This document shows, one piece after another, positions 5,893-62,699 of a stretch of DNA of 64,000 bases (its first letter is position 1; every line of letters begins with the position of its first letter). The stretch is from Flavobacterium sp. (lineage in GTDB: Bacteria; Bacteroidota; Bacteroidia; Flavobacteriales; Flavobacteriaceae): assembly GCA_036386895.1 (NCBI GenBank), contig DASVUR010000002.1:243-64242 (forward strand), written 5' to 3'. A program made the translations under genes and the position numbers. The notes beneath the pieces are model-generated. The model saw nothing but the letters and a program-made list of their open reading frames with translations, did no database searches and was not told where the DNA came from.

Positions 5893-5971
5893 CGAAATTC
5901 CGAATAAACGCGAACAAGTTCCTACAGCAATGCTGTGACTAGCACACAAAAAGCGCAATAAAGAGTATTTC

Positions 5972-6757
5972 TCAATATTTCTTTCGCACTGCATCCTCGT
6001 ATTTTTCAGAAACCTTTTCCCAGTTTATCACGTTAAAGAACGCCTGGATGTAGTTGCTGCGTTTGTACTTATAGCCTAAGTAATAGGCGTGCTCCCAAAG
6101 ATCAAGTCCCAGAATAGGGGTTCCGGGAACGGGCGACTGCGGCATCAGCGGATTGTCCTGGTTCTGCGTCGAAGCAACTTTAAGTTTGCCGGAACGGTCC
6201 ACAACAAGCCATGTCCATCCAGAACCGAAGTGCCGATTTGCAGTGCCTTCAAATTCTGTCTTAAAATTTTCGTAGGACCCGAAATCGCGCACTATTACAG
6301 CAGCTAAGGTGTCTTTTGGCTGGCCGCCGCCTTTCGGACTCATAATTTCGAAGAACAAGGAGTGGTTATAATATCCGCCGGCGTTGTTCCGCAAATTCGC
6401 GTCCGACATGTCGAGCTTCGTCAGGATTTCGTTCAGGGGCAGGTTTTGCCTTTCGGTGCCATCAAGCGCGCGGTTAAAATTATTTGTGTAGGTAAGATAA
6501 TGTTTGGAGTAATGCGTCTCCATCGTAAGTGCATCAATGTGCGGTGATAAGGCATCGTAAGCATACGGAAGTTTTATCATTTCAAAAGCGCCCGGATCGG
6601 CTTGTACATCGTCCGGATGCCCGATTGTTTGCTTTTCTTCGGCCGCCGGCAATGGCACTTCTACAACTTCAGTAAGTTTTTTTTTGTTGCACGACTGCAG
6701 TGCAAGGGTTAATGAAAAACACAACATAATCACTTTTGCCTTTTTCATGGTCGTCAT
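5972..6757 (-). CDS. Mn/Fe superoxide dismutase with N-terminal lipoprotein signal
   Basis: HYSKH, NHSLF and DLWEHAYY metal ligands; NNAGG and NQD are Mn/cambialistic-type signatures; lipobox LALQSC (start may be 6748). Confidence 0.88.
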   Translation of the reverse strand: MTTMKKAKVIMLCFSLTLALQSCNKKKLTEVVEVPLPAAEEKQTIGHPDDVQADPGAFEMIKLPYAYDALSPHIDALTMETHYSKHYLTYTNNFNRALDGTERQNLPLNEILTKLDMSDANLRNNAGGYYNHSLFFEIMSPKGGGQPKDTLAAVIVRDFGSYENFKTEFEGTANRHFGSGWTWLVVDRSGKLKVASTQNQDNPLMPQSPVPGTPILGLDLWEHAYYLGYKYKRSNYIQAFFNVINWEKVSEKYEDAVRKKY

Positions 6758-6758
6758 T

Positions 6759-7019
6759 TTAGGTAATTGAATTGATTGCTTCTATGTAAAGTTGTTTGGC
6801 CTCATCGGGAGTGAGGTGGCTGATTTGCATCCACGCATTTGTCTTAAATGCATTTCGCAGATCAAAAGAATTATTGAAGTTCGCTTCAGGCGTACCAAAT
6901 GTCGCTTGCTTGTAATAAGCATACAGTCGGAGCTGCACATCCTGTGGCAGATCTGATTGCGCCATCTTCGAAGCACGTTCAACGGCTTGTGCAAAAGCGA
7001 TATCTAAATCTTCAGGCAT
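6759..7019 (-). CDS. Acyl-CoA-binding protein (ACBP)
   Basis: LYAYYKQATFG and KTNAW motifs; 86 aa. Confidence 0.85.
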   Translation of the reverse strand: MPEDLDIAFAQAVERASKMAQSDLPQDVQLRLYAYYKQATFGTPEANFNNSFDLRNAFKTNAWMQISHLTPDEAKQLYIEAINSIT

Positions 7020-48117: not shown

Positions 48118-49263
48118 TTATATTGCTTCTTTCGTCAGCTCGTGCTGCATCGGTGCCTTTTCAAGTTCGTAGAAAAGATCGATCGCATTTTTAAATGCCT
48201 GGTCCATGTTGAAGTATTTATAGTTGGCTAGCCTTCCCACGAAATAAACATCGGTCAGCGTATCAGCCTCGGCCTTATATTTCTCGTAGATCTCCTGGTT
48301 TCTGGAGTTCGGAACCGGATAATAGGGCTCGCCTTCATCTACCGTATATTCACGAACGATCGTCGTCTTGTCGGATTGCTGATTTCCGAAGTGCTTGTAT
48401 TCCACGATACGTGTAAAATCGACTTCGGTTCCCGGATAGTTAACTACAGAATTTTCCTGGAAGAATTCAGCGTCAACAGTTTCTGACACGAAATTGATCG
48501 AACGGTATTCCAGCTTCTCAACAAGGCTGTGCTTGAATTCAAAATAACGATCAACCGGGCCGGTATAAAACAGTTTATCGAAACCCGTAATGGTATCTTT
48601 GATATCGAAAAAATCAGTGTTTAGTTGTATAGTAATATTTGGGTGGTCGAGCAGGTTCTCAAACAGTTGTGTATAGCCACCTTTTGGCAATGCCTGATAT
48701 TTGTCGGAAAAGTAACGGTCATCGAAATTCGTCCGCACCGGAATTCGTTCCAAAACGGAGGCATGCAACTCTTCAGGATATTTATCCCACTGTTTTTTAG
48801 TGTAGTGACGGAACATCTTTTCGTAAAGTTCATTTCCGACTTTGCTGATAACGGCTTCGCGCCCATCTTTCGGACTGTCTATCTTTACGCGGTTTTCTTC
48901 AAGCCACGCCTTCATCTCGTCTTCGGTTTGGAGATTCTGTCCGAAGAGTTCGTTAACAGTAGTGATATTCACCGGAATCGGTACAAGCTTCTCATCCACT
49001 TTTGCAATTACCTTGTGTTCCCACGGATACCATTCTGAAAACCGGTTCACATATTCCCAAACATCTTCTTCATTGGTATGGAATAGGTGAGCGCCATATT
49101 TCGATACGAGGATACCGTTTTCATCGATATAATCATAGCAGTTTCCCGCAATATGATCGCGTTTCTCAATAATTAATACTTTCTTTCCTATCGCCGCATA
49201 ATGTTGCGCCAGTACTGCTCCGGAAATTCCGGCGCCAATAACTATTATATCGTAATTTTTCAT
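48118..49263 (-). CDS. glf: UDP-galactopyranose mutase
   Basis: IGAGISG, HIAGNCYD, YGAHLFHT, FTRIVEYKHF, EPYYP, GRLANYKYFNMDQ; ATGA overlap with the GT gene. Confidence 0.96.
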   Translation of the reverse strand: MKNYDIIVIGAGISGAVLAQHYAAIGKKVLIIEKRDHIAGNCYDYIDENGILVSKYGAHLFHTNEEDVWEYVNRFSEWYPWEHKVIAKVDEKLVPIPVNITTVNELFGQNLQTEDEMKAWLEENRVKIDSPKDGREAVISKVGNELYEKMFRHYTKKQWDKYPEELHASVLERIPVRTNFDDRYFSDKYQALPKGGYTQLFENLLDHPNITIQLNTDFFDIKDTITGFDKLFYTGPVDRYFEFKHSLVEKLEYRSINFVSETVDAEFFQENSVVNYPGTEVDFTRIVEYKHFGNQQSDKTTIVREYTVDEGEPYYPVPNSRNQEIYEKYKAEADTLTDVYFVGRLANYKYFNMDQAFKNAIDLFYELEKAPMQHELTKEAI

Positions 49264-50405
49264 AGTTCGGCCGTTTTGCTGATGATTTGGCTCATTTGGC
49301 TGACCGTGTTGTTCCATGATGTCTTTTCGAGAATTTCGCGATAGTCTGCGTCCAAGGCCAGTTTGTCGGTTTTGCCCAAGGCTTTGTCGATCGCTTCAGT
49401 AAAGTTTTCGGCAGAGTCAACGATAGACACACAGTGGCTGTAATCACGAACTACATCTTTAATTGCTGTAGAAATAATAGGCTTTCCTGCGGCAATGTAT
49501 TCAAGGGTCTTCGTCGGACTGATAAATTTCGTCGCATCGTTTAGTGCAAAAGGCATCATGGCTACTGAAAATGCTTTAAGGTAGTTTGGAAGCACGTTGT
49601 ACGACTTCATACCGAGGTAATGGATATTTTCTAATCTTGGCAGATCATGGTCGCCGATTTTCGCCAAAGGACCAATCATTACAAAGGATACTTCAGGGTT
49701 GATTTTCGCAGTTTGCTCAAGCAACTGAAGATCGATCCGTTCGTCGATTACACCAAAATAACCTACGATAGGCGAAGGAATGTTCGCGATATCGTCCGGA
49801 ATCGACACGCCGTTGAGGGCTTTTGCAAAATGCTCCTGATCGACCGAGCTTGGGAAGCAGTAAACATGGTCATGCAATTGCTTTTTGGACTCATATAACG
49901 ATTTACCACCCGTGAAAATGATATCGGCATTTGAAATTAGAAACTTTTCCTGCTCAAGAAGTTCAGCCGGCGCGCCCTTAAACAAGGTAAGTTCGTCCAT
50001 GCAATCGTAAATAATCGTTCCGAAATTGAATTCAGGTAGCAACGAAACAAACGAAGGCGAATAAAACCAGCCGATATTGATGCTCGTATCGGATACAAAC
50101 TGTGGCAACACGTTCTTAATTTCCGCGATAGACGCTGTCTTTGGCTGCAGAATATGCAAATTTTCGCTAATCTTGTGAAGATTCCCGGTATTGGCTTCTT
50201 CCGGACTATGGGGTATTGGTTCCTCAATAAGAAGTATTTTAAAGTTTTTTGCAAGTCGGCTGATAATGTGCTGCGGGCGTTGGTAAACAAATTCCCATCT
50301 CAGATGGCAAAACACCACCATATCGTAGCCTTCTTTTGAAGAACCTGTTGCGGAAATGCTGTCGTTTTTTGCTGTGATTTTCTCACTGGTTTTGATCTTT
50401 TCCAT
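49260..50405 (-). CDS. GT-B glycosyltransferase (glf-associated)
   Basis: HLRWEFVYQRPQH, YDCMDEL, GYFGVIDERID, SPTKTLEYIAAGKPIIST. Confidence 0.88.
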   Translation of the reverse strand: MEKIKTSEKITAKNDSISATGSSKEGYDMVVFCHLRWEFVYQRPQHIISRLAKNFKILLIEEPIPHSPEEANTGNLHKISENLHILQPKTASIAEIKNVLPQFVSDTSINIGWFYSPSFVSLLPEFNFGTIIYDCMDELTLFKGAPAELLEQEKFLISNADIIFTGGKSLYESKKQLHDHVYCFPSSVDQEHFAKALNGVSIPDDIANIPSPIVGYFGVIDERIDLQLLEQTAKINPEVSFVMIGPLAKIGDHDLPRLENIHYLGMKSYNVLPNYLKAFSVAMMPFALNDATKFISPTKTLEYIAAGKPIISTAIKDVVRDYSHCVSIVDSAENFTEAIDKALGKTDKLALDADYREILEKTSWNNTVSQMSQIISKTAEL

Positions 50406-50619: not shown

Positions 50620-50680
50620 AATTGTACAATGCCACATCATAATTCTATAACTTCTACTTCCTACAAAAAAGCCACTTTTG
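50620..50680 (+). promoter_or_regulatory. Island regulon promoter of the leader/cytidylyltransferase
   Basis: aattgtacaa-N11-aattctataa-N22-CACTTTTG. Confidence 0.6.
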
Positions 50681-50684
50681 TAAA

Positions 50685-50826
50685 GACGCTGCCAGTGCTC
50701 CCGGAAGCGAATCAAAATGCCATAAAATCGAAAAGTTTCAGAGAAAACGGTAGTGCATTCTCGTTACACGGATATCGGAAGCTTTTCACAAGTGGAGTAA
50801 TAAGTCGTTTATTACTCCACTTTTTA
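50685..50826 (+). ncRNA. Candidate ~140-nt structured sRNA or attenuator leader
   Basis: Bounded by a promoter and a 14-bp terminator; internal stem GAAAAGTTTC (50730-39) / GAAGCTTTTC (50778-87) enclosing GAGAA/TTCTC. Confidence 0.4.
50790..50826 (+). terminator. Intrinsic terminator 25 nt upstream of the cytidylyltransferase start
   Basis: AAGTGGAGTAATAA-gtcgt-TTATTACTCCACTT-TTT, perfect 14-bp stem. Confidence 0.75.
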
Positions 50827-50850
50827 TCCAAGAACAATAAACCAACTTAT

Positions 50851-51312
50851 ATGCAAGCAGAAACTACTAAAATAGGAATTACTTTCAGCGCGTTCGACCT
50901 GCTACACGCCGGCCACATTCGGATGCTGGAAGAGGCAAAGACGGTGTGCGACTATCTTATCGTCGGGCTCCAGACTGATCCAACCCTTGACCGCCCGGAG
51001 AAGAACATGCCCACACAATCAGTCGTTGAACGTTATATCCAGCTAAAAGGGTGCAAATTTGTAGATGAAATTGTTCCTTACGCTACCGAGCAGGATCTTG
51101 AAGACATTCTGAAGTCTTTTACCATTCATGTTCGAATAATCGGCGACGAGTATAAAAGCAAGAATTTTACAGGCCGTTCGTACTGTGAAGAAAAAGGAAT
51201 TGAACTTTATTACAACAAAAGAGATCACCGTTTTTCAAGTAGCGGGCTTCGGCGTGAAGTGTATGAGCGAGAGTGCGAAAAACTCAATACCAAACTTACT
51301 ATGGTAAAATAA
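50851..51312 (+). CDS. Glycerol-3-phosphate cytidylyltransferase-like (TagD-like HxGH nucleotidyltransferase)
   Basis: SAFDLLHAGH, IVGLQTD, IIGDEY, RDHRFSSS; start reset to MQAETT. Confidence 0.85.
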   Translation: MQAETTKIGITFSAFDLLHAGHIRMLEEAKTVCDYLIVGLQTDPTLDRPEKNMPTQSVVERYIQLKGCKFVDEIVPYATEQDLEDILKSFTIHVRIIGDEYKSKNFTGRSYCEEKGIELYYNKRDHRFSSSGLRREVYERECEKLNTKLTMVK

Positions 51313-51540: not shown

Positions 51541-52269
51541 ATGCGAAAGCAAATAAACACCATGGCGCAAATTGGCTATAGCGGAATCGCATTGGTAACG
51601 GGTGCGTCAAACGGAATTGGAAAGGCAATTGCGGCACGGCTTGCAGAAGCGGATTTTAATGTGGCTGCGGCCGATGTTGTTCCATTCGAAAATCCACCAC
51701 GGAACATCAATCATTATCAATGCGATGTTTCGGACGGTAAACAGGTAGACGAACTCTACGCCAGAATGAACAGCGAGATCGGACTGCCTGATGTATTGGT
51801 TTTGAATGCCGGAATCGGGATCCACGAGATGCTCACAGAAGGTGATCCCGAAAAATGGTTCAGGGTTATCAATACAAATCTGATTGGTCCGCTGCGGTTC
51901 GTACGTGCATTTGTTCCGCCAATGGTTCAGAAGAAAAGAGGCCATGTCGTCTTTATTTCTTCAGTCGCTGCCGATCAGCCTTATACATATGGCGGAGTCT
52001 ACAGCGCGACCAAAGCAGGATTGGAGCGTATTGCTGAAACACTCCGGCTGGAAACAGCTCCCGATATCAGTGTCACAGTGGTTTCAGCTGGTGTAACCGA
52101 CACAAATTTTTTTGAAAATCAAGTATCGGCAGGAAATACTGTTGAAAGTATCGGAATGGGTGCCATTAAGGCGAAACAAATTGCCGAAGACGTGTTTTAT
52201 GCAATTTCCCGACCGCAGGGCACTGCACTTAATAAAATTATTATCCGTCCGTCAGGACAAACTTTTTAA
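51541..52269 (+). CDS. Short-chain dehydrogenase/reductase
   Basis: TGASNGIG, LNAG, YSATK; start may be 51562. Confidence 0.9.
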   Translation: MRKQINTMAQIGYSGIALVTGASNGIGKAIAARLAEADFNVAAADVVPFENPPRNINHYQCDVSDGKQVDELYARMNSEIGLPDVLVLNAGIGIHEMLTEGDPEKWFRVINTNLIGPLRFVRAFVPPMVQKKRGHVVFISSVAADQPYTYGGVYSATKAGLERIAETLRLETAPDISVTVVSAGVTDTNFFENQVSAGNTVESIGMGAIKAKQIAEDVFYAISRPQGTALNKIIIRPSGQTF

Positions 52270-52280
52270 AACCAAACAAT

Positions 52281-53396
52281 ATGAAAAAAAGAATATTAAT
52301 TACCGGTGGAGCGGGGTTTATAGGATCGCACCTTGCCGATGAACTAATTGAGAAAGGATATGAAGTCCGTGCGCTTGACAATCTCTCGGAACAAGTTCAC
52401 GGTCCGGCGGCGCAACGTCCTGAATATCTAAATCCGCAAGTGGAGCTTATTGTTGGCGATGTGCGCGATAAAGACACTGTAATCGAAGCATTACAGGATG
52501 TAGACGCAGTATTTCACTTTGCAGCAATGGTCGGCGTAGGCCAAAGTATGTACCAGATAAGAGATTATACCGATGTAAACAATGTCGGCACCGCAGTTTT
52601 GCTTGAGGCGCTAACAGAGAATCCTGTCAGCAAACTTGTTGTTGCATCCAGCATGAGCATTTATGGTGAAGGCTTGTACACCAATGGCCATGGCGAATTT
52701 GTTCATGAATGCGATCGTAGGCTGGAAGATCTGAAATCGCAGCGATGGGAACTGTATGATGATGAGCGAGGTATTCTGAAACCGCTTGCAACTCCTGAAA
52801 CGAAAAAGCCAAACCTTTCGTCGGTTTATGCATTGTCGAAGTACGACCAGGAGCGACTTTGCCTGATTACAGGAAAAGCATATAATATCCCGACTACTGC
52901 ATTGCGGTTTTTCAACGTTTACGGAACACGTCAGGCGCTGTCAAACCCATACACAGGCGTGCTAGCGATTTTCGCGTCTCGTCTGTTGAACAATAACGCT
53001 CCGCTAATATTTGAAGACGGCTGTCAGAAGCGCGATTTCGTTCATGTGAAAGATGTTGCCCGGGCGTGCCGTCTGGCGCTCGAAACTCCTGAAGCCGACG
53101 GCGAAGTGTTCAACGTTGGAAGCGGAAACCAATATACGATAGTTGAGATTGCCGAAAAACTTGCAAAAGTCATGGGTAAGAATATAAACGCGCAGCTGAC
53201 AGCAAAATACAGAGTTGGCGATATCCGTCACTGCTTTGCCAACCTTGATAAAGCGAAAGCGATTCTTGGATATGAACCTCAGGTTAATTTTGAAGAAGGC
53301 CTTACCGAACTTGCCGAATGGCTTGAAGGGCAGATTGCTGTTGACAGCGTTTCGCAGGCAACTGAGGAACTTGCAGCGCGAGGTTTAACTGTTTAA
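52281..53396 (+). CDS. NAD-dependent NDP-sugar epimerase/dehydratase (WbiB-like 4-epimerase)
   Basis: TGGAGFIGSH, LDNLSEQVHG, SSMSIYGEG, YALSK, RFFNVYG, RDFVHV. Confidence 0.88.
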   Translation: MKKRILITGGAGFIGSHLADELIEKGYEVRALDNLSEQVHGPAAQRPEYLNPQVELIVGDVRDKDTVIEALQDVDAVFHFAAMVGVGQSMYQIRDYTDVNNVGTAVLLEALTENPVSKLVVASSMSIYGEGLYTNGHGEFVHECDRRLEDLKSQRWELYDDERGILKPLATPETKKPNLSSVYALSKYDQERLCLITGKAYNIPTTALRFFNVYGTRQALSNPYTGVLAIFASRLLNNNAPLIFEDGCQKRDFVHVKDVARACRLALETPEADGEVFNVGSGNQYTIVEIAEKLAKVMGKNINAQLTAKYRVGDIRHCFANLDKAKAILGYEPQVNFEEGLTELAEWLEGQIAVDSVSQATEELAARGLTV

Positions 53397-53405
53397 TTCG
53401 CTACT

Positions 53406-55433
53406 ATGAGAAAAATTTCTGTTAAACCTGATACTTCAAAAATTGGAATAGTCGAGTGGTTCAGGCCGGGCCAATACGATGAAGTGAAACAAACAATAGC
53501 GGATTTTAACGTACTGGGTGTTAGTAAAATACGCACTGGCGTTTCATGGGCGGAATGGCATGTAGAAGGCACGCCGGAATGGTACGATTGGCTGTTTCCC
53601 GAGCTCGCAAAGCACGTCGAGATCCTGCCATGCGTTCTGTACACGCCACCTTCATTGGGCGAAGCCGAACGTGTGTCGGCGCCGCCAAAATACTTAAAAG
53701 CGTATGCCGATTTTATTGACGTGATGATCACGAGATATGGCGACTATTTTGAGTGGATCGAACTATGGAATGAGCCGAACAACATCGTAGAATATGATTT
53801 CACGCTTGATTATTCCTGGAACAAATTTGCAGAAATGATTGGAAACGCTGCCTATTGGGCGCAGCATCGTGGCAAGAAAACGCTATTGGGCGGAATGAGC
53901 CCGATCGATCCCAATTGGCTGCAAACTATGGCGGAAAAGGGGGCATTAACCTGCATCGATGCGATCGGTATACATGGTTTTCCAGAAGTATTCGATCAGC
54001 AATGGTCGGGATGGGAGCTAAATCTTAGGGCGGTCCGCGAAGTACTGGAGCGGAACAACCTGAAGAAAGAACTATGGATTTCTGAAGTGGGTTTCTCGAC
54101 CTGGCAAGGCGACGAAGTCAAGCAATGGGAAGAGTTCAAGAAGGTCATCAATACCGACGCCGACAGAATTTACTGGTACGGGCTTAACGATCTCGATCCA
54201 CAATATCCAACGGTCGCCGGATTCCACCTTGACGATCGAGAGTACTACTTCGGAATGAAAAAATATGATGGGACAGAGAAGCTATTGTATAAATTATTAG
54301 CAAAAGAAGGAATGGAAAATATCAGCAAACACGACTACATCAACAAACAATATTCAGTCGAAACTGACCAAAAATATACACTGATAACCGGCGGCGCAGG
54401 CTTTATAGGAACAAATCTCGCCAGCCGTTTGCTCAGTGAAGGGAAACGGGTGATGGTCTATGATAACCTGTCGCGCGCAGGAGTCGAGCAAAATCTTCAG
54501 TGGCTGAAGGAACAATACGGCGATCGCCTTATCGTCCAGATCGCCGACATCCGTGAGAAGCGTATCCTTGAGGAATCGGTAAAGAATGCCGACCAGGTGT
54601 TCCATTTCTCCGCACAGGTTGCCGTTACGTCGTCACTGACAAACCCGACGCACGATTTTGAGGTAAACATACTGGGGACTTTCAATCTGCTTGAAGCAAT
54701 TCGCAACTCACCAAACCAACCACCGCTTGTGTTTACGTCAACAAACAAAGTGTATGGCGATTTAATGGATCTCGGCCTTCGTACCGACAGCACGCGCTAT
54801 TATCCGGAAAGCGATTACTTTAGAAAACATGGCATAGATGAGTCGCGTCCGTTGGATTTTCACAGTCCGTACGGTTGTTCAAAAGGTGCAGCCGATCAGT
54901 ACGTGCTTGACTACTCCCGTTCATACGGATTAAAAACGGCTGTGTTCAGGATGAGTTGCATCTACGGGCCGCATCAGTTTGGTACGGAAGATCAAGGCTG
55001 GGTCGCACATTTCCTGATCCATGCGCTTGAGGACCGGGCAATTACAATCTATGGCAATGGCAAGCAGGTACGCGATATTCTGTTTGTAGATGATCTTGTG
55101 AATGCATTTGTCCTTGCTCAGCAGAATATCGACAAGATTGCAGGCAATGCGTTCAACATCGGCGGCGGACCAGAAAATACAACCAGCCTGATTGAGATAC
55201 TCGACACCATTAAAGCTAAAACCGGCAAGCAAATGCAGATTTCTTATGAAGAATGGCGTACCGGAGATCAACAGTACTATGTTTCGGATACTACGAAATT
55301 TTCAAAAGCGACCGGCTGGTCTGCGCAGTATTCAGTTTCTGAAGGTGTGGAAGCATTGATGAACTGGCTCTGCGAGTCGCGCGGCATTGAGCTGCCTGAA
55401 AGAAATTCCGTAACTAAAGCTATTGCGATATAA
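53406..55433 (+). CDS. Fusion of a clan GH-A TIM-barrel glycoside hydrolase-like domain and a CDP-paratose 2-epimerase (RfbE)-like extended SDR
   Basis: N-terminal ELWNEP and WISEVG (acid/base and nucleophile Glu); C-terminal TGGAGFIG, DFHSPYGCSKGAADQY, DQGWVAHF; single uninterrupted ORF. Confidence 0.82.
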   Translation: MRKISVKPDTSKIGIVEWFRPGQYDEVKQTIADFNVLGVSKIRTGVSWAEWHVEGTPEWYDWLFPELAKHVEILPCVLYTPPSLGEAERVSAPPKYLKAYADFIDVMITRYGDYFEWIELWNEPNNIVEYDFTLDYSWNKFAEMIGNAAYWAQHRGKKTLLGGMSPIDPNWLQTMAEKGALTCIDAIGIHGFPEVFDQQWSGWELNLRAVREVLERNNLKKELWISEVGFSTWQGDEVKQWEEFKKVINTDADRIYWYGLNDLDPQYPTVAGFHLDDREYYFGMKKYDGTEKLLYKLLAKEGMENISKHDYINKQYSVETDQKYTLITGGAGFIGTNLASRLLSEGKRVMVYDNLSRAGVEQNLQWLKEQYGDRLIVQIADIREKRILEESVKNADQVFHFSAQVAVTSSLTNPTHDFEVNILGTFNLLEAIRNSPNQPPLVFTSTNKVYGDLMDLGLRTDSTRYYPESDYFRKHGIDESRPLDFHSPYGCSKGAADQYVLDYSRSYGLKTAVFRMSCIYGPHQFGTEDQGWVAHFLIHALEDRAITIYGNGKQVRDILFVDDLVNAFVLAQQNIDKIAGNAFNIGGGPENTTSLIEILDTIKAKTGKQMQISYEEWRTGDQQYYVSDTTKFSKATGWSAQYSVSEGVEALMNWLCESRGIELPERNSVTKAIAI

Positions 55434-56446
55434 TGGAAACAGTCATTTTTCCAAAAACTACTGAAAGTAATTTTCCAGAAATTCAAACGATAAAAGCCGC
55501 TGTTCTCGTTGCCCCGAAGCAAATTGAGGTGCGCGATGTGGCAATGCCTGCACCCAAAACCGGCGAAATTCGTGTAAAACTTGAAGGCTGCGGCGTTTGT
55601 GCATCAAACATCCCCGTTTGGGAAGGCCGTGAATGGTTTTCATATCCTGTTTCCGGGGGAAATCCCGGACATGAAGGCTGGGGAACTGTCGAGGCAATAG
55701 GCGAGGGCGTAATTGGAGTCACCGTGGGTGAACGGATAGCCTGTTTGTCGTACAACGCCTACGCTGAATATGACATTGCAAAGGCTTCCGAAATTGTAAA
55801 ACTTCCGGCTTTTCTTGATGGCAAGCCTTTTCCGGGCGAGCCTTTAGGCTGTGCAATGAATATTTTTAATCGATGCGACATTCAACCCGGACAAACGGTA
55901 GCCATTATCGGCGCCGGATTTTTAGGCGTGCTTCTTGTCCAGCTTGCTAAATCGGCTGGAGCCAATGTAATTGCAGTATCGCAACGGGCGTTTTCACTAG
56001 AAACGGCAGCAAAGGCTGGAGCCGACCATCTTGTGCCAATGGACGATCATTACCGGATTATAGAAAAAGTAGGCGAACTCACAAACGGAAAGTTCTGCGA
56101 ACGCGTGATTGAAGTTACAGGCAAAGAATGGCCGCTGAATTTGTCAATTGAACTTACAGCAGAGCGTGGGCGACTGATCGTGGCAGGATTCCACCAGGAC
56201 GGATTGCGTCAGGTAAATATGCAACTGCTGAACTGGCGGGGAATTGACCTGATTAATGCGCATGAACGCGATCCGAAACAATATGTCCAGGGAATGCGCG
56301 ACGCAATAACAGCAATTGAAGCCGGCAAGATGGATCCATTTCCATTCTTCACGCACAGTTATCCGCTTGAAGACGCGCAGGAGGCATTCGAGCATTTGAG
56401 AAGCAGACCCGACGGATTTATAAAAGCACTTTTAATCAACCAGTAA
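55433..56446 (+). CDS. Zn-dependent medium-chain dehydrogenase (no structural-Zn lobe)
   Basis: GVCAS, GHEG, GEPLGC, GAGFLG; no Cys4 cluster. Confidence 0.85.
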   Translation: METVIFPKTTESNFPEIQTIKAAVLVAPKQIEVRDVAMPAPKTGEIRVKLEGCGVCASNIPVWEGREWFSYPVSGGNPGHEGWGTVEAIGEGVIGVTVGERIACLSYNAYAEYDIAKASEIVKLPAFLDGKPFPGEPLGCAMNIFNRCDIQPGQTVAIIGAGFLGVLLVQLAKSAGANVIAVSQRAFSLETAAKAGADHLVPMDDHYRIIEKVGELTNGKFCERVIEVTGKEWPLNLSIELTAERGRLIVAGFHQDGLRQVNMQLLNWRGIDLINAHERDPKQYVQGMRDAITAIEAGKMDPFPFFTHSYPLEDAQEAFEHLRSRPDGFIKALLINQ

Positions 56447-56447
56447 A

Positions 56448-57473
56448 ATGACATTAACAGATCAGCAACAGGAAACAAAAGCACTGGCACTTGGCTTTAT
56501 AGGTGTGGGATGGATTGGCAGAAACCGTATGGAAGTCCTTGTCAACAGCGGGAAAGCAACGGCGGCGGCAATATCCGAACCCTATACGGAAAACGCAAAT
56601 GCTGCTCTTGAAACTGCTCCTGAAGCACACATTTTGGATAATCCCGAGCTTATTTATTTAAATTCCAGTCTTGATGGCGTGGTAATCGCAACTCCGAGTG
56701 CGCTTCATGCCGAACAATCAAAGAGTGCACTGGATTCAGGAAAAGCGGTGTTTTGCCAGAAGCCTCTTGGCCGTACGGCTGCTGAAGTCCGCGATGTCGT
56801 TAACGCTTCAAAATCGGCAAATAAACTTCTTGGGGTCGATCTTTCTTACCGTTATACTAAAGCCTTCAACTCAGTTTATAATGTTGTTGCAGGTGGTCAG
56901 ATAGGGAAAATATTTGCGGTCGACCTCATATTCCACAATGCCTATGGTCCTGACAAAGAGTGGTTTTACGATATAAAACGATCGGGCGGCGGCTGCGTGA
57001 TGGACCTCGGAATCCATTTAGTTGATTTGGCGCTTTGGTCTTTGGGTTTCCCCGATGTAACTAAAGTCGACAGCCATCTGTTCAGCAAAGGACGTAAGCT
57101 TGCACCGAATGAGGAGCAGGTAGAAGATTTTGCCAAAGTTTCTATGTTGACAGGCGACCACACATCGATCAGCCTTAAATGTTCATGGAACGTATCGGCC
57201 GGACAAGATGCCGTGATCGAAGCACGATTCTACGGAACTGGCGGTGGCGCTGCTTTTAGAAATATCAATGGTTCGTTTTACGACTTTCAAGCTGAAAGAT
57301 ACAACGGAACCCAAACCGAAATACTTGCCTCGCCGCCGGATGACTGGAGTGGCCGTGCAGGAGTTGTTTGGGCCGAAAGAATATTGAACGGAACCGGATT
57401 CGATGCTGAAACAGCAACAGAATTTATAAAAACCGCTGAGGTCATCGACCGCATCTATGGAAGGCGGATTTAA
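56448..57473 (+). CDS. Gfo/Idh/MocA-family oxidoreductase
   Basis: GFIGVGWIG, IATPSALH, FCQKP, GGGCVMDLGIHLVD. Confidence 0.9.
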   Translation: MTLTDQQQETKALALGFIGVGWIGRNRMEVLVNSGKATAAAISEPYTENANAALETAPEAHILDNPELIYLNSSLDGVVIATPSALHAEQSKSALDSGKAVFCQKPLGRTAAEVRDVVNASKSANKLLGVDLSYRYTKAFNSVYNVVAGGQIGKIFAVDLIFHNAYGPDKEWFYDIKRSGGGCVMDLGIHLVDLALWSLGFPDVTKVDSHLFSKGRKLAPNEEQVEDFAKVSMLTGDHTSISLKCSWNVSAGQDAVIEARFYGTGGGAAFRNINGSFYDFQAERYNGTQTEILASPPDDWSGRAGVVWAERILNGTGFDAETATEFIKTAEVIDRIYGRRI

Positions 57474-58551
57474 AATATTGATGACTGCCGATACCGTTGG
57501 TGGTGTCTGGACATATGCCGTTGATTTGTGCCGTGCGTTGCAGTCGCATCAGGTTCACGTCCACTTGGCCACAATGGGCGCTCCGCTGTCGGATGATCAA
57601 AAGCAGCAAGTTCAGCAGTTGCCGAATGTCTTTGTTTACGAAAGCCGCTACAAACTTGAATGGATGCAGGATCCGTGGGAAGATATAGCAGCAGCAAAAG
57701 AATGGCTGAAGCAAATTTTTATGAAGGTGAACCCAGATCTTGTTCACTTCAACAACTTCGGGCAATGTGATGCAGATTGGAAGTGTCCTGTTGTGACGGT
57801 TTTCCACTCTTGCGTGCAAACGTGGTTCCGGGCAGTGAAGAAGTCGGACGCGCCTTCTGAATGGAACGGGTATACAAGTATTGTGAAGAACGCATTGAAC
57901 AGTTCTGACATCATAATTGCTCCGTCGAAATCAATAGCAATTGAAGCAGCCGAAATATACCAATGCGGTAATTTTCAAGTGATTTACAACGGAAGCGACA
58001 AGGTCTCGAATGCTCCTCATAAGCAGCCGTATATACTGGCCGCCGGAAGAATTTGGGATGAGGCGAAGAACATCGCACTTCTGACGAAAATTGCGGACAA
58101 GTTATCCTGGCCGGTGTACGTTGCCGGTGATAACGTTGCACCGCATACACCGGATGCCGCGGATATGGCTAAGGTTTATTTTCTCGGAAAGCTTCCCGCT
58201 GATGAACTTCAGCACTATATGTCGGATGCCGCAATATTTGTGTCGCCTACAAAGTACGAGCCATTCGGACTCGCTATCCTTGAAGCCGCAAATGCAGGAT
58301 GTGCCTTAGCGTTGGCAGATATTCCCACGCTGCGGGAAATCTGGGGCGATTCTGCTGTCTATTTTAGTCCGGAGGACGAAGCTGAGGCTTTGTTGACACT
58401 TCAATATCTGATCGATAATCCTGAATCACGTACCGAACTTGCACACCGGTCTTCGGCACGTGCAAAAACATACAACACGAGCGAAATGGCGAACGCTTAC
58501 AAAGAACTATATACTAAAATAGTCGCTCAAAAATTAAAACCAACCATATGA
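57457..58551 (+). CDS. GT4-family glycosyltransferase
   Basis: TADTVGGVWTY, AGRIWDEAKN, YEPFGLAILEAANAG. Confidence 0.88.
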   Translation: MEGGFKILMTADTVGGVWTYAVDLCRALQSHQVHVHLATMGAPLSDDQKQQVQQLPNVFVYESRYKLEWMQDPWEDIAAAKEWLKQIFMKVNPDLVHFNNFGQCDADWKCPVVTVFHSCVQTWFRAVKKSDAPSEWNGYTSIVKNALNSSDIIIAPSKSIAIEAAEIYQCGNFQVIYNGSDKVSNAPHKQPYILAAGRIWDEAKNIALLTKIADKLSWPVYVAGDNVAPHTPDAADMAKVYFLGKLPADELQHYMSDAAIFVSPTKYEPFGLAILEAANAGCALALADIPTLREIWGDSAVYFSPEDEAEALLTLQYLIDNPESRTELAHRSSARAKTYNTSEMANAYKELYTKIVAQKLKPTI

Positions 58552-59681
58552 AAATTGCTCTTTTTTATCACTCGTTATACTCCGACTGGAATCACGGGAA
58601 CGCCCATTTTTTAAGAGGAACCGTAAAGGAACTTCTAAAGCGTGGCCACGATGTATCGGTTTACGAGCCTGAAGGCGGATGGAGCTTGACCAACCTTGTG
58701 AACGATCACGGACGCGAAAGGCTTGACGAATTCAAAACATATTATCCGGAATTATCAGCGTCATTTTATAATCCGACAAAGCCTCCTTACGAACAAATGC
58801 TTAAAGACGCCGACCTTGTACTCGTACACGAGTGGAATGAGCCGGAGCTTGTTGCAGAAATTGGTCGCCTTAAAGAAACTTTCGGCTATAAACTGCTGTT
58901 TCACGACACGCATCACCGAGCGGTTTCAGAAGTTGAAAGCATGTCTAAGTATGACTTTTCCAATTACGACGGCGCGCTTGTTTTTGGCGACGTCATCAAA
59001 AAAATATATCAGCAGGAAAACTGGATCCAAAATGTATGGACCTGGCATGAAGCTGCTGACCCCGACCTGTTTGCGCCTCAGAAAGACGCCGACAAAATTG
59101 GCGATCTCGTATGGATCGGGAATTGGGGCGATAATGAGCGTACCGAAGAATTGATGGAATTCCTTGTCAAACCCGTAAAAGAGCTCGGGTTAAAAGCGAA
59201 AGTGTACGGAGTTCGTTACCCTGAAGAAGCATTGGCAGCCTTGAAAGATGCCGGAATAGAATACGGCGGCTGGCTCCCGAACTATAAAGCGCCTGAAGTT
59301 TTCGCACAATATAAGGTAACGGTTCATGTTCCGCGCGGACCATATGTAAAATGGCTACCCGGAATTCCGACAATACGCCCCTTTGAAGCATTGTCATGCG
59401 GAATTCCGCTGATCTGCTCGCCGTGGAACGATGCTGAACATTTATTTTCTCCAGGTGAAGATTACCTGACGGCGTCAAACGGTGAAGAAATGAAATCCCA
59501 ATTACAAAAAATCCTTAGCGAGGAAACCTTTGCAAAGGAAATTTCCAAGCGCGGACGACAAACGATATTATGCCGACATACATGTGCGCACCGCGTCGAC
59601 GAACTGGAGGATATCTGTCGGGAACTGGGTTTTTTGGAATCAAAAATAAACGTACTACAGAAAAATATTCTTGAAGCATGA
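58548..59681 (+). CDS. CgeB-like (DUF3880 / Glyco_trans_1_2) glycosyltransferase 1
   Basis: SLYSDWNHGNAHFLRG, HDTHHRA, IPTIRPFEALSCG. Confidence 0.8.
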   Translation: MKIALFYHSLYSDWNHGNAHFLRGTVKELLKRGHDVSVYEPEGGWSLTNLVNDHGRERLDEFKTYYPELSASFYNPTKPPYEQMLKDADLVLVHEWNEPELVAEIGRLKETFGYKLLFHDTHHRAVSEVESMSKYDFSNYDGALVFGDVIKKIYQQENWIQNVWTWHEAADPDLFAPQKDADKIGDLVWIGNWGDNERTEELMEFLVKPVKELGLKAKVYGVRYPEEALAALKDAGIEYGGWLPNYKAPEVFAQYKVTVHVPRGPYVKWLPGIPTIRPFEALSCGIPLICSPWNDAEHLFSPGEDYLTASNGEEMKSQLQKILSEETFAKEISKRGRQTILCRHTCAHRVDELEDICRELGFLESKINVLQKNILEA

Positions 59682-60793
59682 ACAACACCAATTTAAAAAT
59701 AGCATTTTTCGGTTCCAGCATCGTTTCGGCATATTGGAACGGCGCTGCAACCTATTACCGTGGGATCGTGAAAGCGTTGCACGCGATGGGGCATGATGTA
59801 ACCTTTTACGAACCAGACATCTACGAACGGCAGAAACATCGGGACATTGAAGATCCGGCTTATTGCCGTGTTGTTGTATATCAAAGTTCGGAAGAAGAAT
59901 TACGACAGCACCTTGAACAAGCTGCGTTGGCCGACGTTATCATAAAGGCGAGCGGCGTGGGTGCACTGGATGATTTCCTTGAGCAAGAGATCGCCGTTAT
60001 GAAATCGGATGCTAACCTTGTTATCTTCTGGGATGTTGATGCACCGGCAACACTCGACAGGATTGAGAGCGACGCCTTCGATCCATTCAATGCTTTGATT
60101 CCGAAATATGATTACATTCTGACATACGGTGGCGGACAACCTGTGATCGAAGCATATAAGCGAAACGGCGCCCAACAATGTATACCGATTTACAATGCAC
60201 TCGATACCGATACGCACTTTCCGGTGGCACCCGAACCGCGTTTCGAAGGAACCCTTGCCTTTCTTGGAAATCGTTTGCCCGATCGTGAGGCACGTGTTGA
60301 GGAATTTTTTCTGAAACCTGCTGCAAACCTTCCGAATTTCAAGTTTTTACTTGGCGGAAGCGGTTGGGGCGACAAGCACATGCCGTTTAATGTTGATTAC
60401 ATTGGACACGTTTACACAAAAGACCATAACGCGCTGAATTGTACTCCCACGGCAGTCTTGAACATCAGCCGCGACAGCATGGCAAAATATGGTTTTTCGC
60501 CTGCGACAAGGGTATTTGAAGCAGCCGGCGCCGGAGCATGCATTATAACCGATTATTGGGAAGGCATCGAGTTCTTTTTTGAACCCGGAAAAGAAATACT
60601 TGTTGCAAAAGATGGCGACGAAGTAGCTTCGATCATTCGCGACCTAACGCCGGAACAGGCACGCAATATTGGTGATGCTGCTTACAAGAAAGTGCTGGAA
60701 ACGCATACTTACGGTCATCGTGCACAATTGCTTCAATCAATATTTAACAAATCATTATCTGCCTCGCAGGTAGATATAATTGAAAACATATGA
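59678..60793 (+). CDS. CgeB-like glycosyltransferase 2
   Basis: SIVSAYWNGAATYYRG, WDVDAPATL, GNRLPDRE, SPATRVFEAAGAG. Confidence 0.82.
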   Translation: MNNTNLKIAFFGSSIVSAYWNGAATYYRGIVKALHAMGHDVTFYEPDIYERQKHRDIEDPAYCRVVVYQSSEEELRQHLEQAALADVIIKASGVGALDDFLEQEIAVMKSDANLVIFWDVDAPATLDRIESDAFDPFNALIPKYDYILTYGGGQPVIEAYKRNGAQQCIPIYNALDTDTHFPVAPEPRFEGTLAFLGNRLPDREARVEEFFLKPAANLPNFKFLLGGSGWGDKHMPFNVDYIGHVYTKDHNALNCTPTAVLNISRDSMAKYGFSPATRVFEAAGAGACIITDYWEGIEFFFEPGKEILVAKDGDEVASIIRDLTPEQARNIGDAAYKKVLETHTYGHRAQLLQSIFNKSLSASQVDIIENI

Positions 60794-61896
60794 AATTCGT
60801 AGTTATAGGCTTATCGGTCACATCTTCTTGGGGGAATGGCCATGCCACAACGTATCGCGCACTGCTGAAAGAACTGTCGAAGCTGGGGCATGATATTCTT
60901 TTTTTGGAGAAGGATGTTCCCTATTATGCTTCAAACCGCGACCTGCCAAATCCCGACTTTTGTCGGCTGGCGTTGTATCAGTCGAACGACGAGCTAATGC
61001 AGGAATATCGCGATGAAGTCGCAAACGCCGATGTTGTAATTGTGGGCTCGTATGTGCAGCAAGGCGTGGAAGTTGGCAAATGGGTAATAAATACAGCCGG
61101 CGGAATCAAAGCATTTTACGATATCGATACGCCTGTTACACTTGCAAAACTTGAACGTGAGGATTTTGAATATATTACTCCGTCGCTGATTGCGAAATAT
61201 GATCTTTACCTATCCTTCTCAGGTGGGCCTATACTAGACCATATCGAGCGTTACTACGGATCGCCGGCTGCAAGGGCATTGTACTGTTCGGTTGACCCGG
61301 AACATTATTTTCCTGAAGAAGAACTGAAGAAATGGGAGATGGGTTACCTCGGAACGTATAGCGTAGATCGTCAGCCAACGGTTGATTTACTGCTGAACAA
61401 AACGGCCACTTTATATCCTGAGGGAAAGTTTGTTGTTGCCGGACCGCAATATCCATCGCAGATAGAATGGCCGCAAAATGTGGAACGCATCGAACATTTG
61501 CCGCCTGCCGAGCATCGGAAATTTTACAATTCGCAGAAGTATACGTTGAACGTGACGCGCGAGGATATGATTCGCGCGGGCTATTCCCCGAGTGTGCGGC
61601 TGTTTGAAGCGGCAGCGTGCGGCGTTCCCATTATTTCTGATTATTGGGACGGGCTCACATCTTTGTTTGAAGAAGGAACTGAAATACTGATTGCACGTAC
61701 GGCTGAGGATGTTCTAAAATATTTAAATGAAATTGATGATGTTGAACGGAAGCAAATAGGCGAGAAGGCGCGGCAGAAAGTCCTCAAAATCCATACGGCA
61801 GCAGCACGCGCGGCGGAGCTGGTTGGGTATGTGGAAGATATCAAGCAGCTTTCGGAAACGACGGTTGAAGATACAACATCAAAAGCATCTTTATGA
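60790..61896 (+). CDS. CgeB-like glycosyltransferase 3
   Basis: SVTSSWGNGHATTYRA, YDIDTPVTL, SPSVRLFEAAACG. Confidence 0.82.
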   Translation: MKFVVIGLSVTSSWGNGHATTYRALLKELSKLGHDILFLEKDVPYYASNRDLPNPDFCRLALYQSNDELMQEYRDEVANADVVIVGSYVQQGVEVGKWVINTAGGIKAFYDIDTPVTLAKLEREDFEYITPSLIAKYDLYLSFSGGPILDHIERYYGSPAARALYCSVDPEHYFPEEELKKWEMGYLGTYSVDRQPTVDLLLNKTATLYPEGKFVVAGPQYPSQIEWPQNVERIEHLPPAEHRKFYNSQKYTLNVTREDMIRAGYSPSVRLFEAAACGVPIISDYWDGLTSLFEEGTEILIARTAEDVLKYLNEIDDVERKQIGEKARQKVLKIHTAAARAAELVGYVEDIKQLSETTVEDTTSKASL

Positions 61897-62699
61897 ATTT
61901 GAACGAGGAGATAAAAAATCTGGAACCATGGTTTCACAATATCCACCTGCCCGACGGAACGCAAACCTCGCCGCGGCATTTTCTTGGGGATTTCCCAGCT
62001 TTCAAATGGAAAAAAATAAAAGATTCGATTCCGGAAGATCTATCAGGTTGGAAGGTGCTCGACATTGGCTGCAACGCCGGCTTTTACTCGATTGAACTTG
62101 CTAAACGCGGCGCAACCGTGGTCGGAATAGATCTCGACGATCATTATTTGAAACAGGCGAAATGGACGGCAAATCAATTTGGTTTCCAGGACAGAATCAC
62201 ATTTAAAAAGATGCAGGTTTATGATCTGGCGCATATTGATGAGGAGTTTGACCTGGTCTGGTTTATGGGTGTTTTCTACCATTTGCGCTATCCGATGCTC
62301 GCAATGGACATTATCGCGCAGAAAGTAAAGAAGTTGCTGGTTTTTCAGACACTTTCAATACCCGGAACCGAGGAGATGGAAATTCCCAGTGATATCACCT
62401 TTCACGGTCGCGATGTTTTAAAAGAAATCGCATTCCCAAAGATGGCCTTTATTGAAAACAGCCTTGCCGGTGACCATACGAATTGGTGGGTTCCGAACCA
62501 TCAGGGAATTTTATCGATGCTAAGCAGTTGCGGGTTCAAGGTAGAAGCAATGCCGGAAGATGAAACGTACGTGGCGGTTAAGGATCCAAATATTAATACA
62601 GATTTTAATACGTGGAATTATTCCGAATATCTGTCGGCGACAGGTAGTGATTGGCAAAATGAAATCGAGAAGAAGACAAAAAATAAGTACAAAATTTAA
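61893..62699 (+). CDS. CmoB/DUF1698-like class I SAM-dependent methyltransferase (resembles TIGR04290 family)
   Basis: PWFHNIHLPDG, FKW, VLDIGCNAGFY, MGVFYHLRYP, NWWVPN. Confidence 0.82.
   Translation: MNLNEEIKNLEPWFHNIHLPDGTQTSPRHFLGDFPAFKWKKIKDSIPEDLSGWKVLDIGCNAGFYSIELAKRGATVVGIDLDDHYLKQAKWTANQFGFQDRITFKKMQVYDLAHIDEEFDLVWFMGVFYHLRYPMLAMDIIAQKVKKLLVFQTLSIPGTEEMEIPSDITFHGRDVLKEIAFPKMAFIENSLAGDHTNWWVPNHQGILSMLSSCGFKVEAMPEDETYVAVKDPNINTDFNTWNYSEYLSATGSDWQNEIEKKTKNKYKI

Follow-up and report, generated by a model that had tools for sequence, protein, structure and literature searches.

A predicted PslG-like barrel fused to a TyvE-like epimerase in a widely scattered sugar-assembly gene cassette

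Introduction

PslG of Pseudomonas aeruginosa, a GH39 enzyme, is a retaining endo-β-glucosidase that is encoded in the Psl glycan-synthesis operon and uses Glu165 as acid/base and Glu276 as nucleophile (PMC11912335). In mycobacteria, production of the methylmannose polysaccharide (MMP) depends on MmpH, which recycles it intracellularly into primers (PMC9883506). TyvE of Thermodesulfatator atlanticus (TaTyvE) interconverts CDP-Glc and CDP-Man; its Tyr203 caps the cytosine, and within its TNK segment the Thr belongs to the catalytic triad, the Asn positions the sugar and the Lys binds the pyrophosphate (PMC13098431). Here we describe a gene of Flavobacterium sp. in which a barrel resembling PslG and an epimerase resembling TyvE are encoded in one open reading frame (ORF). 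The gene lies at 53406-55433 of a 64,000-nucleotide stretch (GCA_036386895.1, contig DASVUR010000002.1, positions 243 to 64,242 of the forward strand), which we call the window and whose coordinates are used throughout.

A sequence-only reading of the window had described the gene as a glycoside-hydrolase-like barrel coupled to an epimerase from the superfamily of short-chain dehydrogenases/reductases (SDR), and had suggested channelling of a rare sugar or quality control of the operon product. With moderate confidence, we propose that the product is a cytoplasmic two-enzyme protein, in which a C-2 epimerase would supply a nucleotide-sugar donor and a PslG-like barrel would trim or recycle the glycan made by the surrounding gene cassette. 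What we observed are the folds, the catalytic residues, the conservation of the fusion, the cassette and the split forms, and from these we infer both activities and the nature of the cassette product.

Results

The fused gene and its N-terminal barrel

The gene is a single open frame with an ATG start and a TAA stop at 55431-55433, and all five motifs quoted in the sequence-only reading (WNEP, WISE, TGGAGFIG, YGCSK and DQGWVAHF) were found in the intact ORF. The whole gene and the features of its first half are as follows.

53406..55433, plus strand: whole fused gene, 675 codons and TAA
53406..54371, plus strand: clan GH-A (β/α)8 barrel, PslG-like, residues 1-322 (family profile, AlphaFold 2 model and Foldseek)
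53772..53774, plus strand: Glu123 of N-E-P (WNEP, residues 121-124), predicted general acid/base, directly after β4 (117-120), aligned with PslG Glu165
54084..54086, plus strand: Glu227 of W-I-S-E (residues 224-227), predicted nucleophile, at the end of β7 (222-228), aligned with PslG Glu276
54306..54374, plus strand: helical linker, about residues 301-323; helices 293-301 and 303-308, then coil to strand 324-328 (full-length model)

The N-terminal domain alone matched no Pfam family at E ≤ 10, and as a single sequence it gave only weak matches to GH1 enzymes in the PDB (E ~0.006). Detection of PslG required a family profile built from 40 relatives, the single sequence being insufficient. This profile matched PslG with an E-value of 3.6e-14 over residues 12-303, covering the whole barrel. 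AlphaFold 2 (AF2) returned a barrel of eight alternating β/α units with a predicted local distance difference test score (pLDDT) of 93.8 and a predicted template modelling score (pTM) of 0.91. When this model was submitted to Foldseek, PslG was again the first match (E 3.5e-17), followed by GH39 and GH30 enzymes; the 500 best matches all had E ≤ 0.001, and those listed were GH-A-type barrels. Both searches bear out the earlier assignment to a GH-A-type barrel, and the confident AF2 model places the two glutamates at strands 4 and 7, as had been anticipated.

The aligned PslG glutamates have chain indices 139 and 250 and so lie 111 residues apart, as do Glu165 and Glu276. The further residues expected of clan GH-A, the Arg of β2 (R43), the His of β6 (H190) and the Trp of β8 (W257), were present and conserved. 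The Pfam GH39 model (PF01229) touched only three of the 40 relatives, with a best E-value of 0.0018, and the full-length model held no β-sandwich after residue ~310, where the linker and then the SDR follow. By profile and predicted fold, the N-terminal barrel belongs to clan GH-A; GH39 is its nearest family, at too great a distance for the barrel to be filed there. An exhaustive search for barrel relatives (E ≤ 0.001) gave 1,184 representatives, whose lengths were about 310-350 and about 625-716 residues.

A further glutamate, Glu119 (nucleotides 53760-53762), lies on β4 four residues before Glu123. It was conserved in more than 90% of the fused proteins in the family alignment, and was also kept in most fused proteins that lack Glu123.

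The N-terminus, MRKISVKPDTSKIG..., has no hydrophobic stretch, and no signal peptide was visible by inspection, in agreement with the sequence-only reading. As a hydrophobic N-terminal segment is missing, the fusion protein is most likely cytoplasmic, judging by inspection of the N-terminus only.

The C-terminal SDR belongs to a TyvE-like subfamily

The second half of the gene carries the following features.

54375..55370, plus strand: extended SDR, residues 324-655, CDP-tyvelose 2-epimerase-like (PDB 9rl0 and 1orr; Pfam Epimerase and GDP_Man_Dehyd)
54390..54410, plus strand: NAD-binding GxxGxxG (G329-A-G-F-I-G335; TGGAGFIG at 328-335), by sequence motif
54741..54749, plus strand: TNK segment, T446-N447-K448, by alignment to TaTyvE (roles from PMC13098431)
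54870..54884, plus strand: Y489-G-C-S-K493, catalytic Tyr and Lys of the SDR triad, by alignment
54987..55001, plus strand: lid loop E528-D-Q-G-W532 (DQGWVAHF at 529-536), with Glu528 at the position of TaTyvE Tyr203

The domain matched Pfam PF01370 with an E-value of 2.5e-50. Against the PDB it matched 9rl0 (E 1.6e-94) and 1orr (E 3.5e-86), with the next family at 9.4e-38. At such E-values the assignments of both halves lie well beyond chance. A complete extended SDR is thus present, as had been claimed, although the domain begins at residue 324 (nucleotide 54375) rather than at about nucleotide 54372. The window SDR retains the triad T446/Y489/K493, the TNK segment, the DQGW lid and Arg618. 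The equivalent of this last residue in TyvE, Arg299, sits near the α-phosphate (PMC13098431).

Besides Glu528, the domain differs from TyvE in having VAV (405-407) where TyvE has the sugar-positioning VAM. Of 120 standalone relatives, 119 had EDQGW and all had VAV; of 120 fused ones, 116 had EDQGW. Being common across the relatives, these signatures mark a distinct TyvE-like subfamily. The likeness to RfbE/CDP-paratose 2-epimerase that had been noted holds for the TyvE-like fold and motifs; the subfamily is a separate one. Reading these residues by alignment, we infer as the best explanation that the SDR inverts C-2 of some nucleotide-hexose.

Could the protein be an ordinary RfbE, acting as 2-epimerase on CDP-paratose/tyvelose in the dideoxyhexose pathway of an O-antigen, to which a domain of no relevance has been added? 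Database names ('CDP-paratose 2-epimerase') and the strong structural match to TyvE speak for it. In the host genome, which is 99.98% complete, however, the best match to RfbF (glucose-1-phosphate cytidylyltransferase, TIGR02623) reached 31.7 bits against a cut-off of 300, and the best match to CDP-glucose 4,6-dehydratase (TIGR02622) reached 95 bits against a cut-off of 278. The cassettes inspected held no dideoxyhexose genes, and the subfamily signature is EDQGW/VAV, not YDQGW/VAM. As the CDP-dideoxyhexose pathway genes did not rise above their cut-offs, the classical paratose/tyvelose role is excluded, and we consider this explanation of the fusion extremely improbable. The rare dideoxy sugar suggested by the sequence-only reading falls with it, the SDR differing from TyvE both at the cytosine-capping Tyr and at VAM.

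The fusion is conserved

A word-indexed search returned 120 clusters of homologues of about 675 residues, at 65-86% identity; those with names were from Flavobacteriaceae and Marivirga. Species genomes were scanned with barrel sequence patterns taken from an alignment of ten close sequences, and at least 526 of them held a barrel relative. Our locus counts refer to the best 80 loci among these matching genomes. A full-length fused ORF was present in 76 of the 80, and the remaining four were cut by contig ends. With 120 clusters and 76 intact loci, the fusion is no stop or frameshift artefact, a point on which the sequence-only reading is upheld. Its view that such a fusion is unusual stands for characterised enzymes and fails for genomes, given the number of matching species and the fused state of every complete locus among the best 80.

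Fusions were found in Flavobacteriaceae, Cytophagales (Pontibacter, Rufibacter, Hymenobacter and Dyadobacter), Saprospiraceae, the cyanobacterium Coleofasciculus, Planctomycetota and Geomonas. Fused copies are also carried on plasmids, in Rhizobium etli CFN42 (p42b, RHE_RS22270), R. leguminosarum, R. phaseoli, Agrobacterium and Paracoccus. Across 79 fused orthologues the two domains were equally conserved, with median identities of 63.2% and 63.9%. The names given to the fusion in public databases ('CDP-paratose 2-epimerase', 'GDP-mannose 4,6-dehydratase' and 'epimerase') cover the SDR half only.

In Adhaeribacter swui (CP055156.1, L103:9960-10010) the barrel and SDR frames overlap, one base being missing from a run of G at the ITGG/GxxGxxG junction. 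We rejected a natural gene split here; in this complete genome it is a single-base frameshift, arising from sequencing error or recent inactivation. A standalone barrel relative of 326 residues (38% identity) was also seen in a phage-like contig, a short way upstream of small and large terminase genes (L001:8001-8981; L002:2497-3477).

The fusion belongs to a conserved cassette

The gene before the fusion, encoding an epimerase, stops 9 nt upstream of the fusion start, and at 55433 the stop of the fusion overlaps the ATG of the next gene (TAATG). This close spacing on both sides places the fusion inside a tightly packed operon. The cassette to which the fusion belongs is as follows.

51541..62699, plus strand: fusion-bearing cassette, encoding an SDR, a GalE-like epimerase, the fusion, a Zn-dehydrogenase, a Gfo/Idh/MocA protein, a GT4 glycosyltransferase, three CgeB-like glycosyltransferases and a TIGR04290 methyltransferase

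Within it, the genes at 52281-62699 surround the fusion with the paired GalE-like epimerase, the GT4, the tandem CgeB-like glycosyltransferases and the methyltransferase; the last gene scored 335 bits against TIGR04290 (cut-off 300). The gene order was common to 76 other species loci, the small SDR being optional and the TIGR04290 methyltransferase usual. It was unchanged even around the Gilvimarinus fusion, whose barrel is only about 32% identical to that of the window. R. etli p42b has the full gene set too, although there the Zn-dehydrogenase and Gfo/MocA genes lie upstream and are divergently transcribed. A rule that an intact TyvE domain always occurs with Gfo/MocA proved only partly true, as two planctomycete loci have an intact SDR without it. 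No export, flippase or polymerase genes were found in the cassettes inspected.

An SDR of the cassette type occurred in three of 400 sampled Bacteroidota genomes and in none of 15 congeners. This patchy occurrence fits an accessory, horizontally moved unit.

The cassettes of Azospirillum, Roseomonas and Sinorhizobium meliloti add genes for inositol-3-phosphate synthase and a histidine phosphatase, and those of Azospirillum and Coleofasciculus add a TIGR04295 B12-binding radical SAM gene.

L109:9496-11219 and 5703-6995, L110:4740-6451, L108:15248-16926 and L064:8430-9701: added inositol-3-phosphate synthase, histidine phosphatase and TIGR04295 genes

Below threshold, the Gfo/MocA and Zn-dehydrogenase proteins resembled inositol 2-dehydrogenase and scyllo-inosose 3-dehydrogenase, and the GT4 resembled MshA. 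Together with the added synthase these matches hint at an inositol-primed glycoside in those lineages that have inositol-3-phosphate synthase. The cassette as a whole might then work on an inositol, cyclitol or other polyol core. The substrate of the SDR would be a CDP-cyclitol, epimerised at the carbon adjoining the diphosphate, or an NDP-sugar that ends up in an inositol glycoside, and this glycoside would be acted on by the barrel. A cytidylyltransferase-like gene just upstream of the cassette in the window would also suit such chemistry. No inositol-3-phosphate synthase domain, however, was found in the host genome (99.98% complete), nor was the gene found in the 80 fused-type loci, so that the inositol hint is not simply transferable to this host; moreover, the hexose-positioning TyvE residues (TNK and DQGW) are conserved and the cytidylyltransferase gene occurs in only one other locus. 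We therefore regard an inositol-based cassette as a doubtful explanation for the window protein.

The cytidylyltransferase-like ORF (50629-51312, plus strand) matched RfaE domain II and TagD over residues 75-210 only, and its first ~75 codons may be non-coding. We rejected it as a cassette member, as it recurred in only one of the 80 loci.

Divergent from the cassette region, two overlapping ORFs on the minus strand at 48118-50405 encode a TuaH-like glycosyltransferase and a UDP-galactopyranose mutase, the latter scoring 369 bits and so exceeding the TIGR00031 cut-off. The neighbourhood of the cassette thus probably directs synthesis of a glycan that contains galactofuranose.

The barrel also occurs as a separate, circularly permuted protein

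Many cassettes have a standalone TyvE-like gene, 61-70% identical to the C-terminal domain of the window protein. We examined such cassettes in Legionella clemsonensis, Ilyomonas limi, a planctomycete-like contig and S. meliloti pSymB. In alphaproteobacterial cassettes, a separate gene of about 310 codons annotated as 'beta-xylosidase' encodes a circularly permuted homologue of the barrel: its first 190 residues match residues 115-304 of protein P0001 and its last 100 match residues 10-112. Permuted barrels begin at β4 with WNEP, finish with β1-β3 and retain both catalytic glutamates. Such genes were located as follows.

L109:11998-12927: permuted barrel gene, Azospirillum lipoferum 4B p5
L110:11998-12945: permuted barrel gene, Roseomonas mucosa
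L107:1823-2785 and L108:17010-17888: permuted barrel genes, S. meliloti pSymB
L069:1389-2270: permuted barrel gene, Dyadobacter

In Dyadobacter the permuted copy is present on top of the fusion. In Legionella the cassette has at its far end a gene of 329 codons, truncated where the locus stops, that opens with the region of the first barrel strand, and we rejected on this ground the view that this cassette lacks a barrel. In Ilyomonas a permuted copy with two internal stops lies about 9.5 kb away. Where the TyvE-like gene is standalone, a barrel homologue is thus found in or near the cassette, in Azospirillum, Roseomonas, S. meliloti, Dyadobacter and probably Legionella, which gives the link Rosetta-stone support. 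The comparison across taxa that the sequence-only reading had called for therefore gives both answers, the barrel being fused in 76 of the best 80 loci and separate and permuted in Alphaproteobacteria.

Directly upstream of the Ilyomonas cassette, which has a standalone TyvE-like gene, is a gene for a GH5 protein of 493 residues (Pfam Cellulase) without a signal peptide (L104:6894-8375). We gave no weight to it as a replacement hydrolase; it shows no similarity to the barrel and is a single case, possibly a coincidence.

Fused or separate, the barrel is a near-constant member of the cassette, and this speaks strongly for a pathway shared by the two enzymes. A need for the barrel to adjoin the epimerase does not follow from it: in the cassettes inspected, the split barrel gene adjoins a methyltransferase or phosphatase gene, or sits at the far end of the cassette, and is never beside the epimerase gene.

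This arrangement bears on whether the barrel might hydrolyse the epimerised nucleotide sugar of the neighbouring site and free the sugar, in the manner of the hydrolysing UDP-GlcNAc 2-epimerases. Physical fusion and a predicted fixed interface (see below) would suit such a 'hydrolysing epimerase', an arrangement for which we know of no precedent. Clan GH-A enzymes such as those of GH39, on the other hand, act on equatorial β-D or α-L glycosides, and the common nucleoside diphosphate (NDP)-D-hexoses are α-linked. The substrates of GH39 enzymes are given in PMC11912335. With the split barrel apart from the epimerase gene, and with either domain decaying independently of the other, a hydrolysing epimerase appears improbable.

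For the same reasons channelling, as suggested by the sequence-only reading, is unlikely: α-linked nucleotide sugars are not the equatorial glycosides that GH-A enzymes cleave, the barrel of the split cassettes is not encoded beside the epimerase, and fusions persist in which one domain or the other has lost its catalytic residues. Probably no intermediate is passed from one active site to the other.

Catalytic residues are lost from either domain within the fusion

Both glutamates were retained in all 120 close homologues and in 73 of the 75 fused loci with an intact SDR, a sign of selection on the barrel. Among 19 fused representatives at 50% identity, about eight lacked one or both while the fusion and the cassette were kept. 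Examples with intact SDR motifs are Gilvimarinus, which has NSL and TTA at the two sites, and planctomycete proteins.

Losses of this kind weigh against our proposal, as hydrolysis is then not universally required, and several other points lie on the same side. Around the planctomycete-like cassette with a standalone TyvE-like gene, a stretch of 10 kb showed no barrel. A pTM of 0.86 for the full-length AlphaFold model hints that the two domains may be packed in a fixed arrangement, with an interface whose purpose trimming or recycling would leave unexplained. As to the donor, neither RfbF nor CDP-glucose 4,6-dehydratase rose above its cut-off in the genome, the capping Tyr is replaced by Glu, and the cytidylyltransferase lies outside the conserved cassette, all of which leaves the donor in doubt.

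A second class of fused proteins (P0122, P0123, P0125, P0129, P0130 and P0220) has a perfect N-E-P and nucleophile and an SDR that is diverged or dead. The TyvE lid was lost in all of them, and the catalytic Tyr in three (P0129, P0130 and P0220). Two SDR-degenerate fusions were located in a cassette, without Gfo/MocA (L099:9001-10878 and L101:5241-7253).

Such decay raises the alternative that the barrel is a pseudo-glycosidase, a non-enzymatic module for sugar binding or scaffolding that would sense the product or anchor the epimerase in an assembly of several enzymes. Several fused lineages without Glu123 and/or Glu227 have kept both fusion and cassette, the barrel stays fused where the SDR is degenerate (including the three proteins without the Tyr and the two in a cassette), and the pTM of the full-length model would suit two domains forming one fixed body. 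In the window protein and all close homologues, however, the N-E-P and the nucleophile are intact; the Arg of β2 and the Trp of β8 are conserved in the family alignments, separately encoded permuted copies retain both glutamates, and the barrel is conserved as much as the SDR. A purely structural or binding barrel fits the lineages without the glutamates and does not fit the window protein, in which all catalytic features are kept; as an account of the latter we consider it unlikely.

Discussion

Proposed function of the fusion

Our proposal places the fusion as one member of a horizontally spread cassette of about ten genes, all of which would encode soluble sugar-assembly enzymes. The SDR half would carry out an NAD-dependent inversion of C-2 of a nucleotide-diphospho-hexose of the glucose/mannose type, via a transient 2-keto sugar. 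Its nucleotide and sugar probably differ from those of true TyvE. The epimerised donor would feed the GT4 and the three CgeB-like glycosyltransferases of the cassette. The barrel would be a retaining enzyme, either a glycosidase or a transglycosylase, in which Glu123 serves as acid/base and Glu227 as nucleophile, and which cuts or remodels the glycan or glycoside built by those transferases, for length control, release or recycling.

A hydrolase role for the barrel agrees with the hydrolases known from inside glycan-synthesis clusters, such as PslG for Psl and MmpH for MMP. BcsZ likewise has a part of this kind in its own biosynthetic operon. The quality control of the operon product that the sequence-only reading had offered as one option is close to this trimming or recycling. 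The fusion itself most likely couples the dosage and the location of two functions of the cassette.

A more far-reaching version is tentative, and on balance we think it unlikely to be right in full. Here the fusion would be the donor-supply and product-recycling module for a small methylated cytoplasmic oligosaccharide, inositol-primed in some lineages, that is made in Bacteroidota, Pseudomonadota, Planctomycetota, Desulfobacterota and cyanobacteria as a counterpart of the mycobacterial polymethylated polysaccharides. The barrel would be an endo-hydrolase or transglycosylase that generates primers, and the two-domain body a structural unit of fixed shape, kept even where one active site has been lost.

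Significance

Both halves of the protein are well-known kinds of enzyme. The combination, the barrel family and the cassette appear unstudied, and a literature search found no study of the fusion, the cassette or TIGR04290/TIGR04295. The barrel family has no Pfam model, and its annotation is limited to 'GDP-mannose 4,6-dehydratase' or 'epimerase'. The cassette is scattered over several phyla and is present on plasmids of tractable bacteria (R. etli CFN42 p42b, R. leguminosarum, S. meliloti pSymB and Azospirillum), so that the question of its product is directly testable. It is mainly this, a widespread and unstudied cassette in tractable model bacteria, that makes the fusion of interest.

Nature also provides a series of fused, split, split and permuted, barrel-dead and SDR-dead forms, which is a ready control set for the role of the barrel; the fused, split, permuted and decayed forms are, in addition, a case of domain evolution. 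The SDR subfamily with Glu for Tyr may broaden the range of nucleotide-sugar C-2 epimerases, a group now attracting interest in biocatalysis.

Comparison with known systems

The nearest described gene neighbourhood is that of the NCBIfam families TIGR04290 and TIGR04295 (B12_rSAM_oligo), recognised only by comparative genomics, and presumably the one that TIGRFAMs named the 'rhizo-twelve system'. The same families are found in the Rhizobium, Sinorhizobium, Azospirillum and Roseomonas copies of the cassette, whereas the window version is without the radical SAM, inositol-phosphate synthase and phosphatase genes.

The mycobacterial MMP cluster (ManT, MeT1, MeT3 and MmpH; PMC9883506) resembles the cassette in combining one or more soluble glycosyltransferases and methyltransferases with a cytoplasmic endo-hydrolase and no export genes. 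Its enzymes have no homology to those of the cassette, and the likeness is one of analogy only. MmpH was rejected as a structural relative of the barrel, as it is an (α/α)6 barrel.

With TaTyvE (9rl0) and the Salmonella enzyme StTyvE (1orr), the SDR half shares the GxxGxxG motif, the Thr/Tyr/Lys triad, the TNK segment, the DQGW lid and the phosphate-side Arg. In the cassette subfamily, however, Tyr203 is replaced by Glu and VAM by VAV, and the host genome is without the CDP-hexose pathway above cut-offs. The characterised enzymes are single-domain tetramers, whereas the window enzyme is fused to the barrel.

PslG carries a β-sandwich domain at its C-terminal end and acts outside the cytoplasm. 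The window barrel, in contrast, has neither signal peptide nor β-sandwich and carries the SDR at its C-terminus; the two are only about 17% identical, and the Pfam GH39 model does not match the window barrel. PslG (PDB 4zn2, 5bx9 and 9g17) is nevertheless both the best profile match and the best fold match of the barrel, with the same (β/α)8 clan GH-A fold and with the N-E-P acid/base and the β7 nucleophile in alignment, and, like the window barrel, it is encoded among the glycosyltransferases of a glycan-synthesis operon.

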